Source: a phage. From it: a DNA stretch of 64,000 bases. The DNA lies in the sequence record PZ495249.1. The stretch is one strand, 5' to 3'. Below are positions 9,523 through 62,985 of the stretch, in pieces. The translations under genes were made by a program, and so were the position numbers. The notes beneath the pieces are model-generated. The model was not told the DNA's origin, made no database searches, and was given only the letters and a program-made list of their open reading frames with translations. Positions within the stretch are counted from its first letter, which is position 1. Every line of letters starts with the position of its first letter.

Positions 9523-9552
9523 TTGACTTAGGTACTTCGTTTGTGTTAGTAT
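9523..9552 (+). promoter_or_regulatory. sigma70-like promoter
   Basis: TTGACT-18nt-TAGTAT upstream of 9594 gene. Confidence 0.5.
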
Positions 9553-9593
9553 GCCCTCCTACTTAGTTAGGTGGGCTTTTAAAGGAGAACATT

Positions 9594-9803
9594 ATGAATA
9601 AGATTCTGATGGCTTTACTGTTAGTGGCAAGTGCTCCTGCAACCGCAGGGCAGATTACTATTCCAAACTCTGGTGAGGCTGTGAATGGTGACACAAAAGT
9701 TTGCTTCTATTCCAACTCCAATTATGACTTCACCTACGAAGTATCCGCAAATCGTCAGTGTCCTGGGACACGCACGTTTAGTACAGACGAGGATGATGAA
9801 TAG
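9594..9803 (+). CDS. small secreted protein (signal peptide)
   Basis: Track ORF; MNKILMALLLVASAPATAG. Confidence 0.5.
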   Translation: MNKILMALLLVASAPATAGQITIPNSGEAVNGDTKVCFYSNSNYDFTYEVSANRQCPGTRTFSTDEDDE

Positions 9804-24241: not shown

Positions 24242-24742
24242 ATGGCTAAAGTAGTAGATGAGTTTGATATGCTACGCCTTGACGAGGGACTAAAGCTCAC
24301 CGTCTATACAGATACCGAAGGGTATTGGACAGTGGGTATTGGTCATCTCTTAACGAAAGTCAAAGATAAAGCGGTTGCTATCGCTGAACTGGATAAGCTG
24401 GTAGGTCGTAAGACCAATGGTGTTATCACAGAAGACGAAGCACGTACAATCTTCAAGAAAGACGTTGAAAAGGCTATCAAGCAGGTTAAACAGAGTAAGA
24501 TTCTATCTCCGATTTACGATAAGGTGAGTCCTACTCGTAAAATGGCAATTGTCAATATGGTATTCCAAATGGGGATTGCCGGAGCAGAATCTTTCCAAAA
24601 TAGCTTGACATTAGTGAGCAATTCGTACTATACTCAGGCTGGTATCAATTTACGTAAAAGTAAGTGGTACAAACAAACGCCTAATCGTGCAGAGCGAGTT
24701 ATCAAGGTTCTTACATCTGGAACACTTGATGCTTATAACTAA
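24242..24742 (+). CDS. endolysin, T4-type lysozyme (GH24 muramidase)
   Basis: Track ORF 24173..24742 trimmed to ATG at 24242; MLRLDEGLKLTVYTDTEGYWTVGIGHLL and WYKQTPNRAERVI nearly colinear with T4 lysozyme (recalled). Confidence 0.85.
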   Translation: MAKVVDEFDMLRLDEGLKLTVYTDTEGYWTVGIGHLLTKVKDKAVAIAELDKLVGRKTNGVITEDEARTIFKKDVEKAIKQVKQSKILSPIYDKVSPTRKMAIVNMVFQMGIAGAESFQNSLTLVSNSYYTQAGINLRKSKWYKQTPNRAERVIKVLTSGTLDAYN

Positions 24743-24745
24743 CAG

Positions 24746-24765
24746 AGGGGCGTAAGCCCCTTATT
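24746..24765 (+). terminator. GC hairpin, weak terminator
   Basis: AGGGGCGTAAGCCCCT; identical core at 38425. Confidence 0.45.
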
Positions 24766-24779
24766 CAAGGAGTGCTACT

Positions 24780-25532
24780 ATGGGAAATAAACCAGCAAAG
24801 TCTCCACGTCAGAAGCTGGCTGCTAATGACCAGAGACAAAGCCGTTATGCGGCGAAAGCTGTGGGGAACGATGACTACCGTCTTGACGAATTCTATCCAA
24901 CCGAGGCTCAGGAAGAGATTGTGCATAGCATGGTCTGGAATGACCTTACGATTGTGAATGGACGTGCAGGTACTGGTAAGACAACAACCGCTCTGTGGAA
25001 AGCGTTACAAATGCTGAAAGCAGGTGATGTACGAAAACTGCTCTTCCTGAAAAACCCAACTGAGGTGGGTGACGATCAGATTGGTTTCTTATCTGGTGAC
25101 AAGTCAGAAAAACTGACTGCGCACTACGAGTCTACCAAACGAATTTTCCAGCAATTCATGACCGCAAACAAACTGGAAACAGATATTGCTAACGGTAAAA
25201 TCGAACTAAACATTCCTAACTACGCACTGGGCGCTACCTGGGATAACACAATCATCCTGATTGACGAATCTCAGTTAATGTCTCCCGATACCATCAAGCT
25301 CCTTCTGGAACGTACTGGTATCAACTCTCGTGTTGTCGTTATCGGTGACGTGAAACAAACTTATGCTATCAAACATCGTAAAAACGGACTCGCAGATCTT
25401 GTAGATCGTGTAGCTCCGGCTGATGAAGACGGCTATCACACACCTGTAACCGACTTTATCGGATACGTTGAACTGTCAAGCGATGAGAACCAGCGTTCAC
25501 GTCTGTCTCAGTTCATCACGGAAATTTATTAA
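24780..25532 (+). CDS. phoH: PhoH-like ATPase
   Basis: Track ORF; Walker A GRAGTGKTTTAL. Confidence 0.85.
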   Translation: MGNKPAKSPRQKLAANDQRQSRYAAKAVGNDDYRLDEFYPTEAQEEIVHSMVWNDLTIVNGRAGTGKTTTALWKALQMLKAGDVRKLLFLKNPTEVGDDQIGFLSGDKSEKLTAHYESTKRIFQQFMTANKLETDIANGKIELNIPNYALGATWDNTIILIDESQLMSPDTIKLLLERTGINSRVVVIGDVKQTYAIKHRKNGLADLVDRVAPADEDGYHTPVTDFIGYVELSSDENQRSRLSQFITEIY

Positions 25533-25569
25533 TTTAACAAGGCAGGGAAGCCACTTTTATGGAGGATAA

Positions 25570-26061
25570 ATGGCATTTGTTGAAATAGGTAGAAGCGGTA
25601 TTGACGAGTGTTACCAAGCGGGTTTAGTAAAGCCGAACGAGTTCCGGCAGATTTATGTAAACAAGATTGAACAAGAGATCGCTCTCTTACTTGAAAACCT
25701 AACACTTAAACAAAAGTGGGGAATGTTCAAATCTTGGTTAAAGAATGAGGATTGGATTTTATCCCATTACCAGGAACTTTCTGATAGTAAAGACGGACTG
25801 TTTGAGTGTATAATAGAGATAGCCGCCTCAAATCCACAACTTCTTCATATTGATGAAGAAGATTCCAAACTACTTTTCCTAAGCAGTATTTTCCACAAGA
25901 AATCCTTACTCGTTCGAGAGTGCAGTGATTTATTTAATCACCCGCTCACCCGTACCGAGAAGATTCTGGTGGACAAAGAAACGTTACGCGCAATTGACTA
26001 TCTACGAAAATACGTGAACGGTGGAAAAGCAGTTCTTAAAACATTGCAGGAGGAAGAATAA
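25570..26061 (+). CDS. hypothetical protein
   Basis: Track ORF. Confidence 0.5.
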   Translation: MAFVEIGRSGIDECYQAGLVKPNEFRQIYVNKIEQEIALLLENLTLKQKWGMFKSWLKNEDWILSHYQELSDSKDGLFECIIEIAASNPQLLHIDEEDSKLLFLSSIFHKKSLLVRECSDLFNHPLTRTEKILVDKETLRAIDYLRKYVNGGKAVLKTLQEEE

Positions 26062-53513: not shown

Positions 53514-53810
53514 TTATGCAAGCATAAGATAGGTTTGACGTTTACCCGTTCCACCTATCTTCTTCATTACGACTTTCCCTTTCTTAATCAATCGTTTAAG
53601 ATCAGGATCGTAATGTGTATTGGCTTGCCATTTATTGTTAACAGGAATACTACCGTGTTCTTCCAAATAACGCAAGATCATTTTACGACGTTCTGCACCC
53701 TGTGTCATGTAGCGCCAGTTATTTGGTTTTACAAAGCTGCTCTCAGGGTGCATCACCTTGTACAGATTGAATAAGGCTTGCCGCTCTCTACGGGTTTTCA
53801 TCTTAGCCAT
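53514..53810 (-). CDS. hypothetical basic protein, possible DNA-binding
   Basis: Track ORF; Lys/Arg-rich. Confidence 0.45.
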   Translation of the reverse strand: MAKMKTRRERQALFNLYKVMHPESSFVKPNNWRYMTQGAERRKMILRYLEEHGSIPVNNKWQANTHYDPDLKRLIKKGKVVMKKIGGTGKRQTYLMLA

Positions 53811-55871: not shown

Positions 55872-56057
55872 TTAAGATAGATACCACTTAAAGCCACAAG
55901 ATGGACAACAAGGCTCTTTGATACGGAGTTGTTCAGGAGCTTTCACCGGAGCATCTTTCAGGTTGTATGAAGTGAAGCATCTTGCACAAGTCACATCCTT
56001 ATCTGGAATCTCCATCTCAAACCAAGGAAGACCATTACCCCTCTTTGTCACTTTCAT
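55872..56057 (-). CDS. hypothetical Zn-ribbon protein
   Basis: Track ORF 55872..56069 trimmed to ATG with GGGAGGG RBS; CARC...CCPSCG. Confidence 0.45.
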   Translation of the reverse strand: MKVTKRGNGLPWFEMEIPDKDVTCARCFTSYNLKDAPVKAPEQLRIKEPCCPSCGFKWYLS

Positions 56058-56375
56058 ATACCCTCCCAATGGAAATCTTTCACGACCTTCATAGTAGACT
56101 TAATTACCCAACATTTCTAATAGCTTTTCCCTATCAATTATCCCCGAATAATCGTCTATTTTCCCCGAAAGATTAGACTAAAATTTCATCAGAGAAATCC
56201 GAATTCTATCCCCGTATACCCAGTTTATTTTGACACCCCCTGTTTTGCTATGAGCAGACCGAAAATATCCTTATAGGTCAGATGGTTAGGCCAAAACACT
56301 GCGCCATTGCGTGAGGTGCTTAACGCGATTTTTCGTGCCACCCCATTTCTCGACCGCACAATCCCCAAATATCAA

Positions 56376-56390
56376 TGAGAATCATTCTCA
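56376..56390. promoter_or_regulatory. perfect 7-1-7 palindrome TGAGAATCATTCTCA, operator-like
   Basis: Identical copy at 58172-58186; related AAATGAGA-N5-TCTCATTT at 56568-56590. Confidence 0.5.
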
Positions 56391-56567
56391 ATATCATTAG
56401 CATTCAATAACTTAGCTCACATTGTATATAGTTTCATGAGTGAACAATTACTTTTCTATCTAACAAGCAATAACTCTTTATGAATCAATGAGTTGGCAAG
56501 TCTAAACATCTGTTTGAGTGTTGCCAAATGGCTCGACCGTGGGCGCTCCCTCCTCGCTCATGCAAAT

Positions 56568-56590
56568 CAAATGAGAATGACTCTCATTTG
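56568..56590. promoter_or_regulatory. inverted repeat CAAATGAGA-N5-TCTCATTTG
   Basis: Shares TGAGA/TCTCA arms with the 15-bp palindromes. Confidence 0.4.
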
Positions 56591-56710
56591 TATATATTCT
56601 GTACCACAAAAGCCCGAATAAATCAAGAAAAGTCTCAAAGTTTCTCTTTTACGAGAAGTGGCTCAACATCTCACGATGTTTCTGCCCCCAAATTATATGC
56701 TTTTGAATGA

Positions 56711-57145
56711 TTAGGGTGCTAACAGTTGCCCTACTCGGTCGCCTGTCATTGCCCCCAAAATGATTAGCAATCGAATAGTTTCACAATGAAACAATCGCTG
56801 ATGATCATACCTGCATTTGTTAGTGTGCTAACAATGCCACCCTGTTATCGTTAGTGTGCTAACGATGATACATGCTAATAATAACGCACGTAATGGTTGA
56901 CAGCGTAAGCTATTACGCTTGCAAACATTGCAAGCTACATAATAACATGAGTGACTATTAGGAATAGTCATGAAATGGTGTGGTGTAGTTGCGTTATTAT
57001 TAGCTGCCTACGTTTCCGGCGTAGGCGCTAATGATACGCTTGCTAATAATTTTCCCCGAAATAATGTACTACGTGATAGTACCCCTCCGTGATGAATAGC
57101 TTTTTGAATAGATTATTCATAAGTTAATAGTTAGAATGCTAACAA
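56711..57145. repeat. four copies of TTAG-N3-GCTAAC inverted-repeat motif (iteron/operator-like)
   Basis: TTGTTAGTGTGCTAACAA at 56817, TCGTTAGTGTGCTAACGA at 56848, TTAGGGTGCTAAC at 56711, TTAGAATGCTAAC at 57131. Confidence 0.5.
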
Positions 57146-57639
57146 TAACAGACAGGAAAAGATAGGGTTTTAAGGGTTAGGGTTAATATAGATAGGCTGA
57201 TAACGGTTTCAGATAGTTATTGTTTCCGGTGTCAGATATGGCGGGGCTTATGGTTAGGATGATAATCATTAAAGGTGAGATAATAACAGTGATTTACTGT
57301 TAGTTGAGTAAGTAAAAGGGAGGTTTCAGGGTGTTAAATACGAATAGTTCCTATTCTCACATTATGCAATGAAAGTGAATAAATAAGCATAGAAAAGTAG
57401 TCAAATGAGAGGCATTATCAATAATGCCGATATTTCCCCGAAAAGGTGGCTTTGTGCTATGCGCGTGATGCTTCGCATCCATTTTAAGCGGTCTAAAACG
57501 CTCTCTGTGAGGCGCAAGACTCACCCCTGGCACTTGATCAAAGGTGCTTAGAAAACGCCATAACGCGATTTATGCACTTTTCGGCTGTGAGTGATTTCGA
57601 TAGGCAGAATCTATGATTCCAGCTATCACGGATCAGGAG

Positions 57640-57670
57640 GCAAAAAGAAAGGGCGCTTTGTGCGCCCTGG
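57640..57670 (-). terminator. rho-independent terminator for right-hand minus-strand block
   Basis: Hairpin GGGCGC-TTTGT-GCGCCC followed on minus strand by TTTCTTTTT. Confidence 0.55.
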
Positions 57671-57689
57671 TGTGATTAGATGGTTTCTG

Positions 57690-58049
57690 TTAGATTGTGC
57701 CTGTAACGTCGATCCAATAGGATAAATCAATTGTTCCTTTCTCTTTGATTTTTTCCATCAGGCGCTCGGCGCGGTTGGTGCTGTTGATATAATAATCAAA
57801 CATTTCTCCGGTTTCTTCGTCCTCTAATGTTTCGATTCGACCGATGATCACATGGTCCAGGGCGTAAACCTTGCCAGTGTACCAGTTAGTGAGATGAATC
57901 TCGCACTTATAATCATCTGATCCGCTGTCAATGGTTACAACGTCGATTAAATCACCTTTAAACACTGACAGGCTCCACATTGGATCGTTATCCACTACAC
58001 CGCCAAAATCTTTGCCTTTGATAGTAGTTGCCAGGTTAATGATAGTCAT
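57690..58049 (-). CDS. hypothetical protein
   Basis: Track ORF. Confidence 0.5.
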   Translation of the reverse strand: MTIINLATTIKGKDFGGVVDNDPMWSLSVFKGDLIDVVTIDSGSDDYKCEIHLTNWYTGKVYALDHVIIGRIETLEDEETGEMFDYYINSTNRAERLMEKIKEKGTIDLSYWIDVTGTI

Positions 58050-58171
58050 GGTGATTTCCTCGTTTACCGTTTTTCGTTTGGGCTGTTCTGCCCCTCTGAA
58101 AGTAATATTAAGCTATCTTGATTCATCCGTCAATAGTTAATTGTGTAAAGATGCAAAATAAATTTTGTGAA

Positions 58172-58186
58172 TGAGAATCATTCTCA
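58172..58186. promoter_or_regulatory. second copy of TGAGAATCATTCTCA palindrome
   Basis: Identical to 56376-56390; upstream (minus sense) of 57690..58049. Confidence 0.5.
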
Positions 58187-58443
58187 AATTATATTTCACG
58201 TAGCTCCCGTGTGTTTCCTTCGGTTTCATCGTTGCCGCCTCTATAAACATCATAACAAAACCAGGACAAAAAGCAAGCCCTGGAATTGTAAAGATTTAGT
58301 TAATCCACAAATTGATAATGGATATTGCTTCCTTTTCATCCTGTGCGTTCAAGTACAGATCTCGCACTATGATCAGCCTGTTACGGTCATCAAGATCTTT
58401 AACCTTCTCCCATTGCAGGGCATAAACCAGGGCTTCACGCATA

Positions 58444-58776
58444 TCATTGAACATAGTTACCTCTTTTTATTTCGCCTTCTTTCGGTAAAAGTAGCAGGTC
58501 TTTTGCGTTGTGTCCAGTGTAGCGGATCTGCTCCAGGGCCTCATCTATAGCGAAAATCTTCGCTTGTAGTTCACGCTGTCTTTCAATCAAGGCAAGTTGT
58601 AAGTTGTTTACGGCTTCGCCTGGTGTGGCTCCTGTGCTTTCGATCTCACCGTTGCCAGCGCCTGGCATAGCTCCCGCCTTGCTGCTGGCTGTATAATGTC
58701 CACGTTTAGACCAATACACCCTAAACCCTGGCATGTTGAAAACATACTTTTTCAGGATATTGCAAAAGATAATCAT
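58444..58776 (-). CDS. hypothetical protein
   Basis: Track ORF 58444..58797 trimmed to ATG with GAGGAA RBS. Confidence 0.45.
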   Translation of the reverse strand: MIIFCNILKKYVFNMPGFRVYWSKRGHYTASSKAGAMPGAGNGEIESTGATPGEAVNNLQLALIERQRELQAKIFAIDEALEQIRYTGHNAKDLLLLPKEGEIKRGNYVQ

Positions 58777-59698: not shown

Positions 59699-60082
59699 TT
59701 ATAAATAAATTTTGCCATCGTCGCCAACATAGGGATCGGCTTCGCCGTATGTCTGCGCTAACGTGGTGAGGCGCTCCCCTAAATCACCCAATCCACGATC
59801 CCAGAATCCCGCGCCGTGATGGTTGCGAGTTAACCAGAAGTCATGCCCCGCATACGCGTATGCGCCGCCGTCGCCTTTCCCGTACCATTCAGGCAGATCA
59901 GCCAGGAGGTTAGCCCCTGCAAATAAGAATGATTCGCAATCCTCTTTAACTTTGCGCATCGCTTCGGTGGAAAGTTCGAACCCTTCCAGGCTCTCCAGAT
60001 CTTCGCCGTCCTGGTCTGTCCCGCTGCTACTCCATAACATGCAAACGATATAAGCATTGATGAAAATTTCTTTGTTGGTCAT
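59699..60082 (-). CDS. hypothetical protein
   Basis: Track ORF 59699..60100 trimmed to ATG (MTNKEIF...). Confidence 0.5.
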   Translation of the reverse strand: MTNKEIFINAYIVCMLWSSSGTDQDGEDLESLEGFELSTEAMRKVKEDCESFLFAGANLLADLPEWYGKGDGGAYAYAGHDFWLTRNHHGAGFWDRGLGDLGERLTTLAQTYGEADPYVGDDGKIYL

Positions 60083-60083
60083 G

Positions 60084-60311
60084 TTACACCCCAAAATCAA
60101 AACTATTGAATAAACTTTCAGCTTTTGTCAATGCCAGATCATCCCACTCAGTAAAAAACGCTTTACAGGTGGCTTTACCGTTAACGAAACTTGAAACCTC
60201 ATACACAATGAAACCATTTTCAAGTATAGATGATAATGTAACTTTATTACCGTTTTTCTCGTTTACCTTGATTGTGCTTTCCATCTTATCACCTGTTTTA
60301 TTCTGTATCAT
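60084..60311 (-). CDS. hypothetical protein
   Basis: Track ORF. Confidence 0.45.
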   Translation of the reverse strand: MIQNKTGDKMESTIKVNEKNGNKVTLSSILENGFIVYEVSSFVNGKATCKAFFTEWDDLALTKAESLFNSFDFGV

Positions 60312-60652: not shown

Positions 60653-60946
60653 TTATTTTGCCTCGGTTGGTAAATGTTTTCTTTCTGGTTCTAATAGTAC
60701 ACGGGTATTATAAGAGAGTAAATAGGTGATCGCGCTTTTCTTCGTGTTGTACTTCTCCGCGATCTGCGCTGGTTTCATCCCGCCGAACTTATGCAGGGCG
60801 CGAATCTCTAATACCTGCTGATCTGTCCAGGTGATTTTACGCCCTCGCATATCTTGCTTAGGCTCCTTTCTTTTGTACGGCTCAACACTGATCGCCATAT
60901 TAACGAGGGATTGACGCAATTTTAAATTTTTGTTAGATGTTAACAT
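60653..60946 (-). CDS. hypothetical protein, possible HTH DNA-binding
   Basis: Track ORF; basic, helix-turn-helix-like segment. Confidence 0.45.
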   Translation of the reverse strand: MLTSNKNLKLRQSLVNMAISVEPYKRKEPKQDMRGRKITWTDQQVLEIRALHKFGGMKPAQIAEKYNTKKSAITYLLSYNTRVLLEPERKHLPTEAK

Positions 60947-61390: not shown

Positions 61391-61627
61391 TTATTTTTGT
61401 TGCTGGTGTACCAGCTTTAAACCGCGTAAGGCTTGCGCCTTTGTTGGGTGATAACTGGCGCTCTCACGGTTCAAGCCTGAATGAGTCCAGATAAAACCGC
61501 TTTTTGTTTCGCGAATATATCCGATCAGGCGGTTGTATTCCTCTACCGTTCCAGCGTGGATCACTTCGCTGATCTCCCACATACGATCAGGGAATTTTTT
61601 CTTAATGAGAATGCTTTTCGTTTTCAT
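61391..61627 (-). CDS. hypothetical protein
   Basis: Track ORF. Confidence 0.45.
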   Translation of the reverse strand: MKTKSILIKKKFPDRMWEISEVIHAGTVEEYNRLIGYIRETKSGFIWTHSGLNRESASYHPTKAQALRGLKLVHQQQK

Positions 61628-62751: not shown

Positions 62752-62985
62752 TCAATCGAGGCGTGAAACGATGTAGTATAGATCTTGCTCTTTGTCGAAC
62801 AATTGAGAATCTTTCTCATCTATCAAATTACGGATCGCCATCAAGTGATCATTGGCTGGAATTTGTGCTGTACCTAATTGAGAAGCAATCTCATTAAGTA
62901 AACGCTGCGCGGTGTCGATAGCGTGGCGCTGCTGTCTTACGGTCGCATAGTCAAGTGCTGATTTTTTGATTGACACGTTAGCCAT
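62752..62985 (-). CDS. hypothetical protein
   Basis: Track ORF. Confidence 0.45.
   Translation of the reverse strand: MANVSIKKSALDYATVRQQRHAIDTAQRLLNEIASQLGTAQIPANDHLMAIRNLIDEKDSQLFDKEQDLYYIVSRLD

Follow-up and report, generated by a model that had tools for sequence, protein, structure and literature searches.

What reads the two identical palindromes that stand in non-coding DNA of the phage sequence PZ495249.1? The window, by which we mean the whole stretch of 64,000 nucleotides that was analyzed here (one strand, 5' to 3'), contains the perfect 7-1-7 palindrome TGAGAATCATTCTCA at 56376-56390 and again at 58172-58186, and both copies were recovered by reading the sequence and by pattern search at the places where a sequence-only reading had put them. 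That reading had likened the element to the operator of Fur, a dimeric repressor of the winged-helix type whose active form carries Fe2+, and had offered a phage-encoded dimeric regulator as the alternative. The phage is a virulent myophage of the phi92-like group (Stephanstirmvirinae), and its host is an enterobacterium. Our best reading is that the palindromes are probably binding sites for the Fur protein of that host, as judged from sequence comparisons.

Fur-type palindromes in the window and in related phages

Three sites of consensus strength (A, B, and C) and several weaker ones were found, all at the early-gene end of the genome. The three strong sites, and the gap between open reading frames (ORFs) that holds two of them, are as follows.

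56070-57690: ORF-poor gap of 1.6 kb in the ORF list, which holds sites A and B and the weaker site D
56374-56392: site A, AATGAGAATCATTCTCAAT, with a perfect 7-1-7 core at 56376-56390 and a second register from 56368, 6 nt upstream
56570-56588: site B, AATGAGAATGACTCTCATT, with its core at 56572-56586; 20.4 bits on the Fur matrix described below
58170-58188: site C, AATGAGAATCATTCTCAAA, with a perfect core at 58172-58186 and a second register from 58164, 6 nt upstream

Both perfect copies are in non-coding DNA according to the ORF list, as had been noted, and the related site that had been pointed out between them is present as AAATGAGAATGACTCTCATTT at 56569-56589 (15-bp core, 56572-56586). 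Relative to the classical core TGATAAT-N-ATTATCA the palindrome has, as first counted, one symmetric difference per arm. Sites A, B, and C each have the form of a Fur box, a 19-bp inverted repeat matching aaTGAtAATnATTaTCAtt. The extended 19-mer AATGAGAATnATTCTCATT agrees at every letter with the published Xanthomonas Fur-box consensus AATGAgAATcATTctCATT, which was derived from Fur-regulated TonB-receptor genes of Xanthomonas campestris (PMC1790865), and the Fur boxes of Acinetobacter baumannii include AAATGAGAATCATTTTCATTT, with the same arms as the phage palindrome (PMC3055841). An exact copy (100% identity) of the aerobactin Fur operator, GATAATGAGAATCATTATTGACA, stands directly upstream of iucA in 791 plasmids of E. 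coli, Klebsiella, and Salmonella, and this operator has the 13 bases AATGAGAATCATT in common with the phage sites. The iucA operator is one of the footprinted sites behind the E. coli Fur model (PMC2189734). Since this footprinted operator contains AATGAGAATCATT, an enterobacterial Fur operator carries the "G" arm.

The sites were scored with a Fur matrix built from 22 A. baumannii sites, which is not host-specific, and positive controls were taken from the iucA and fepA-fes regions. The training sites score 14.8-27.5 bits (median, 22.3), the iucA operator 19.0 and 14.8 bits in two registers that are 6 nt apart, the E. coli fepA-fes region 13.3 bits, and the deoC control region -2.6 bits. Site A scores 25.6 bits, with a 6-nt shadow site of 9.1 bits, and site C scores 22.8 bits, with a second register of 12.3 bits. 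Sites A, B, and C each score above the iucA and fepA-fes regions. Known clusters of Fur sites consist of sites that overlap with an offset of 6 (or 3) bp, as hexamer arrays do (PMC2189734). The 6-nt offset is found at sites A and C (56368 and 58164) and at 58759/58765, as in the iucA control, and, as far as the sequence shows, the registers at A and C are arranged as is usual where two Fur dimers bind opposite sides of the double helix. Operators of other host proteins were considered and dropped. The RcsB/RcsAB box (TNRGA-N4-TCYNA) needs a spacing of 4 bases, and the spacing from TGAGA to TCTCA is 5 bases in all copies; the ArgR, Fis, and IHF operators do not fit the sequence.

Could such copies arise by chance, or as neutral repeats, in AT-rich DNA? 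If as many as three mismatches are allowed, there are 19 strand-matches to the palindrome versus 3.86 ± 2.07 in shuffled sequence, and none of 100 shuffles reaches 19. The pattern ATGAGA-N5-TCTCAT occurs 6 times with at most one mismatch (0.37 expected). Three sites score at least 18.9 bits, versus 0.04 in shuffles. The good copies are confined to the last 8 kb of the window (56-64 kb), and the best score anywhere in 1-56000 is 10.2 bits. Several weaker copies lie in coding sequence, where codons can account for them, as a chance origin would have it (61604, 61849, and 63933, at gene starts). However, no shuffle equals the observed count, and in seven phages from three host groups no other block of the gap is as well conserved as site A, whose flank aatatcaa is kept; loss of the sites in close relatives was not seen. 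Chance is thus hardly credible as the explanation of the set.

The window is approximately 82-87% identical to the Klebsiella Stephanstirmvirinae FBKp34, phi1_175008, FKP3, and KP13-26, which are phi92-like myophages. The sequence-only reading had named absence of the palindrome from related phages as one outcome that would speak against it; in the relatives, the sites are kept at matching positions. Every relative has an equivalent gap free of coding sequences, in which site B follows site A by 170-196 bp and a third site stands at about +1.0-1.2 kb. A pair of sites is found upstream of the next promoter, and the Klebsiella relatives have a pair of boxes at the position of site C. In the genera that infect E. 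coli, the matching sites read TGAGAATTATTATCA and TGATAATGATTATCA, the latter being a perfect canonical Fur core that stands 195-196 bp from site A as the counterpart of site B; the matching sites of these phages become the canonical TGATAATgATTATCA. The variation from phage to phage is concentrated at the arm position that separates the palindrome from the classical box. This position toggles between G and T while the location and the flanks are kept, as a reader of the Fur type would tolerate.

In the complete 141-kb genome of FBKp34, seven of the nine sites of at least 14 bits are in three non-coding clusters of the early region, one of which is a triplet with a spacing of 29 bp. This triplet (25197, 25226, and 25255) is in a second non-coding gap at 24444-25705, the counterpart of which falls past the end of the window. 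The sequence CAGGTTCGGTGTTTGTCTC follows the 25-kb triplet and recurs in inverted orientation beside the boxes at 15.4 kb, and a plus-strand ORF at approximately 24645-24935 is apparently unannotated.

Beyond the sites listed in the sequence-only reading, the window holds weaker copies that begin at 57404, 58765, 59922, 61604, 62802, and 62877.

57404-57422: site D, AATGAGAGGCATTATCAAT, at the right end of the ORF-poor gap; 14.1 bits
58765-58783: AAAGATAATCATTCTCGTT, at the junction of two minus-strand ORFs; 17.6 bits, with a further register at 58759 (9.7 bits)
59922-59940: AATAAGAATGATTCGCAAT, within the minus-strand ORF 59699-60100; 17.3 bits
61604-61622: AATGAGAATGCTTTTCGTT, over the start codon of the minus-strand ORF 61391-61627; 16.5 bits
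62802-62895: two near-copies, TGAGAATCTTTCTCA and TGAGAAGCAATCTCA, 75 bp apart in an ORF of 77 amino acids; 13.2 and 13.0 bits

At the position of site D, the Klebsiella phages have TGAGATTGATTATCA and the E. coli phages have TAAGAATGATTATCA twice. The 58765 site is kept in phi1_175008 and 05F01 as AAAGATAATCATTCTCATT (20.8 bits), the 59922 site is kept in KP13-26 (18.2 bits), and the 61604 site is identical in phi1_175008 and KP13-26. The conservation of the 59922 site is inseparable from coding constraint because the site is inside an ORF, and the coding sequence MKTKSILIK may by itself account for the match at 61604. The copies at 62802 and 62877 are of uncertain status, since their 77-amino acid ORF has no homologue among the fetched relatives.

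The same palindrome in bacterial and viral genomes

The exact palindrome is present at 120 or more loci in bacterial genomes. Among the matches listed, 150 ORFs that read away from it were compared with Pfam. The families found include the Plug domain of TonB receptors (11 ORFs), FbpA-type binding proteins (9), FUR (7), ZnuA (6), FecI-like ECF sigma factors (5), FeoB (4), FeoA (3), and FTR1 (3), and approximately one-third of the 150 are metal-uptake or fur genes. In viral sequences, the exact palindrome is found in at least 120 contigs, versus 0 and 1 contig for two control palindromes of the same composition, an enrichment of at least 100-fold; the viral and the bacterial counts are lower bounds and include related contigs. 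Among the matches listed, the viral contigs range from 27% to 65% in G+C content, and the neighbors of the palindrome are small unknown ORFs with no common family and no iron genes. Because the palindrome spans contigs that share no family, a trans-acting factor that many hosts possess explains the distribution better than a family-specific phage regulator does.

Two viral contigs from IMG/VR carry arrays of the element. In a contig of 59% G+C there are approximately seven Fur-type boxes in 250 bp (1470-1680), with GC-rich spacers between them. In another, related contig (1810-1890), three identical tandem units of 30 bp, each with the exact palindrome, abut a consensus TTGACA-17-TATAAT promoter; the position of the three boxes just upstream of these elements points to upstream modulation.

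The distribution bears directly on the regulator that had been proposed as the alternative to Fur, namely, a phage-encoded dimeric DNA-binding protein, here an early regulator of Fur-like specificity with the palindromes as its operators. Such a protein would account for the confinement of the sites to the early region and for the consistent use of TGAGAAT/ATTCTCA, rather than the enterobacterial optimum, in the Klebsiella phages. A candidate could be sought in the ORF at 60653-60946, which has weak helix-turn-helix hints (MarR, E = 1e-3; a D5-like regulator in PHROGs, E = 9e-4), and a gene near the gap is annotated as a "putative transcription factor" in a related E. coli phage. However, none of the 27 early ORFs in 53-64 kb, most of which belong to no family, scores above the curated threshold for a DNA-binding family in Pfam or PHROGs, and a tblastn search of the window and FBKp34, with a query that was confirmed as a full FUR domain, found no homologue of Fur. 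The palindrome is moreover enriched in unrelated viral contigs with no shared family of neighbors, is present in phage T5, whose pre-early proteins have no homologue here, and marks metal-uptake genes in bacteria, and the matching sites of the E. coli-infecting relatives drift to the canonical box of the host. The spread over unrelated phages thus weakens this half of the original proposal, and we consider a phage-encoded reader improbable. The other half, the likeness to a Fur box, is borne out computationally by the literature consensus, by the matrix with its positive controls, by the bacterial neighbors, and by arm changes that stay within the Fur consensus.

The same arm changes bear on whether the palindromes act as RNA or DNA hairpins (weak terminators or cruciforms) and not as protein sites. 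A terminator scan flags 56568-56590 on the plus strand, with a stem of -9.5 kcal/mol (z = -2.8), but the perfect copies reach only -4.3 to -7.3 kcal/mol (z from -1.6 to -2.2), and their stems are AT-rich with 3-nt loops. In the relatives, the changes in the arms are one-sided and break complementarity (TGATAACGATTCTCA and TGAGATTGATTATCA); they are not compensatory. One-sided changes together with weak hairpins argue for protein half-sites rather than a folded structure, and a hairpin function is very unlikely.

A probable direct terminal repeat and phage T5

Two independent analyses with PhageTerm have given direct terminal repeats of 317 bp in FKP3 (PMC11663894) and 342 bp in BME3 (PMC12210895). 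The two records have identical sequence at both ends, and sites A and B are inside both repeats, site A being 40-52 nt from the start. The first bases of FKP3 and BME3 map to approximately 56335 and 56322 of the window, respectively, which places the following feature by homology.

approximately 56322/56335 to 56650/56665: inferred direct terminal repeat, which contains sites A and B

Sites A and B therefore probably sit in a short direct terminal repeat, which would be the physical end of the genome. The boundaries of the repeat are located in other conserved blocks, GCTTAACGCG|ATTTTC and TTTCTCTTTTAAGAGAAGnGGCT, and not at the palindromes. The blocks GGTGCTTAACGCGATTTTC and TTTCTCTTTTAAGAGAAGnGGCTCAACA, also conserved, are found where the repeat begins and ends and may be terminase cutting signals. 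Apart from its 317-bp end repeats, the FKP3 record has an exact tandem duplication with a period of 500 bp in 1-817 (1-317 = 501-817); this is probably an artifact of assembly or deposition and was left unused.

With this placement, A and B could also be cis elements of the terminal repeat that serve the terminase small subunit or a protein of replication or end processing, the likeness to Fur boxes being incidental. Both sites are within the PhageTerm-defined repeats of FKP3 and BME3, the boxes of T5 are likewise in a terminal repeat, and, among the matches listed, the palindrome is found within 300 nt of a contig end in 12 of 42 complete viral contigs (3.6 expected; P ~2e-4). Yet the boundaries of the repeat fall in other blocks, equally strong copies stand outside it (site C and, in FBKp34, the clusters at 15.4 and 25.2 kb), and the identity to Fur boxes and the G/T toggling would be left unexplained. 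We regard an end element with an accidental likeness to Fur boxes as rather improbable. A role at the ends and binding of host Fur are not mutually exclusive, since a host factor can assist packaging. IHF, for example, assists packaging at lambda cos.

In the unrelated phage T5 (NC_005859), the left terminal repeat has an annotated injection stop signal, inside which four to five Fur-type boxes are found at 9552-9715. Their positions are 9552, 9656, 9691, and 9697, with additional half-sites, and the best of them, AATGAGAATCATTATCATT (9656), scores 27.2 bits. The boxes flank the calculated shear point of the first-step transfer (9618), and 29 of 33 nt agree between T5 and site A taken together with its flank. 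No homologue of the pre-early proteins of T5 was found here. Repeat Region 3 of T5 (palE, palG, palH, and DRC) resembles the gap of the window in that it is non-coding, rich in repeats, located in the terminal repeat, and equipped with several Fur-like boxes. T5 differs in having paired DnaA boxes, the inverted repeats IRD'/IRC', and DRD repeats, whereas the DnaA box TTWTNCACA has no match in 56000-58300 and the gap is without one. The terminal repeat is 10 kb in T5 but approximately 0.3 kb here, and the two-step injection of T5 is not known for phi92-like phages. The T5 papers that were consulted treat the boxes as palindromes and DRC repeats and make no link to Fur or iron regulation; a literature search for phage T5, Fur, and terminal repeat together found nothing.

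Other systems set this arrangement in relief. The classical Fur box, as at iucA or in the Xanthomonas consensus, has the same sequence, the AA...TT flanks, and the 6-nt registers of the phage sites, but the phage sites stand off the promoter, in the terminal repeat and in inter-operon spacers, with no adjacent iron-uptake gene. Operators for a nutrient-sensing regulator of the host also occur in cyanophages, whose genomes carry PhoB (pho) boxes upstream of auxiliary metabolic genes such as pstS and phoA. These are alike in concept, being host operators on the DNA of a virulent phage, but they adjoin metabolic genes, whereas the sites in the window have no metabolic gene beside them. The stx1 promoter, which is carried by a temperate phage, is regulated by Fur. 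Lambdoid phages also carry the Fur-regulated sitABCD operon (PMC6969025). Both resemble the window in placing a host Fur box on phage DNA, but their boxes are in the promoters of cargo genes that are expressed from a prophage and benefit the host; here the phage is virulent and the boxes are in non-coding terminal and early DNA. Fur boxes on phage DNA were thus known already for the cargo genes of temperate phages. The unexpected part is the placement in a terminal repeat, which is common to T5, and no description of Fur boxes in virulent phages, whether in their terminal repeats or in their early non-coding DNA, was found in the literature.

A broader and tentative idea, which we hold to be unlikely as it stands, is that arrays of host Fur operators of consensus strength are a cis-acting element conserved in the terminal repeats of virulent phages that have no relation to one another (approximately 0.3 kb in phi92-like phages; left and right in T5), with Fur acting on entering or replicating DNA and not as a classical promoter repressor. 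Fur could then arrest or ratchet the entry of the DNA, or mark or protect its ends, and the multiple copies of phage DNA could titrate Fur and so derepress host iron uptake for the iron-dependent ribonucleotide reductases of the phage.

Promoters, neighboring genes, and possible roles of Fur

The genes around the sites are small, of early type, and on the minus strand of the ORF list. Site C is flanked by a gp30.8-like gene and the next upstream ORF, and it stands between a terminator-like hairpin and the promoter of the gp30.8-like gene.

57690-58049, minus strand: gp30.8-like gene of the Phage_30_8 family (Pfam PF06019, E = 7e-30; PHROG 1507)
58105-58133, minus strand: sigma-70-type promoter TTGACG-17-TAATAT for the gp30.8-like gene, from the promoter scan

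In FBKp34, a promoter is annotated at the position homologous to 58133-58105. A literature search turned up no transcriptome of this group of phages.

Several observations weigh against host Fur as the reader of these sites. Site C is centered approximately 81 nt upstream of the point at which transcription from the 58133-58105 promoter is inferred to begin, and not on that point, site A has no adjacent promoter, and site B overlaps only a weak ATGAGA-16-TATATT (9 of 12 positions matched). On both strands, overlap of A, B, and C with sigma-70 elements is limited to weak matches of 9 in 12 or to wrong spacers. By comparison, 83% of the predicted Fur clusters of E. coli overlap -35/-10 elements (PMC2189734). 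The copies in the Klebsiella phages prefer G/C at arm position 4, where the enterobacterial consensus has T/A, and this could mean a different reader. Conservation is stronger in the right arm, ATTCTCAtt, than in the left arm, whereas no such bias would be expected if the site were simply symmetric and bound by a dimer. The ORFs at 60653-60946 and 53514-53810 have weak helix-turn-helix or winged-helix hints, which leave a phage-encoded binder improbable but conceivable.

The analysis establishes what the sites are in sequence, where they stand, that they are conserved among relatives, and that they are enriched. In iron-replete cells, Fe2+-loaded Fur dimers of the host would occupy sites A, B, and C, and under iron starvation they would leave them. 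Simple occlusion of a promoter is an unlikely outcome, since sites A and B are, by homology, in the terminal repeat and site C is approximately 81 nt upstream of the promoter start. Three other consequences can be envisaged, each of them speculative, as is the coupling of phage gene expression to host iron that the sequence-only reading had proposed. Fur might modulate the adjacent early transcription from an upstream position. Its target might be the terminal DNA as such, either during entry or at the ends. Finally, the replicating phage DNA might soak up Fur, the effect on which the Fur titration assay is based. The relatives encode iron-demanding functions, namely, class I and class III ribonucleotide reductases and a Bfd-like ferredoxin; these provide a motive, and no proof.

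The gap contains further elements. No Rfam family and no transfer RNA was found in the gap and its surroundings. In 56000-57750, the GC skew changes from approximately -0.33 to +0.24 near 56.7-56.9 kb, inside the gap; this could be a switch point of replication or transcription, or could simply reflect motif content. Four GTTAG-N4-CTAAC palindromes, TGTTAGTGTGCTAACA, CGTTAGTGTGCTAACG, AGTTAGAATGCTAACA, and GATTAGGGTGCTAACA, are located at 56709-57144 and nowhere else in the window. Their half-sites and spacing are those of the E. coli DeoR operators, for which TGTTAGAATTCTAACA and TGTTAGAATACTAACA were verified upstream of deoC, 599 bp apart. These palindromes were dropped as support for a hub of host factors, being without conservation in the relatives. 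A T5-like phage has similar arms, GTTAGCCTGCTAA and GTTAGCAGGCTAAC, beside its Fur-like box. The motif (T)TTCCCCGAA(A) occurs at least five times in and around the gap (55849, 56141, 56161, 57052, and 57433). An 8-3-8 palindrome, GCTTGCAAACATTGCAAGC, is found at 56917-56935, and a perfect 15-nt inverted repeat, GCTAATAATAACGCA/TGCGTTATTATTAGC, at 56874-56888 and 56990-57004, with the arms 101 nt apart; either may be a further operator or a structured RNA. Downstream of the terminator of the gp30.8-like gene, 57440-57690 is conserved with FBKp34 at the nucleotide level with no convincing ORF, and this segment is a candidate non-coding RNA that matched no Rfam family.

If host Fur does bind these sites, large virulent phages of enterobacteria would read, or manipulate, the iron status of the host from the first DNA that enters the cell. 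Such a reading of host iron would matter for phage therapy because infection sites are iron-limited. For T5, the boxes in the injection stop signal provide a concrete and testable host-factor candidate for the pause in DNA transfer.

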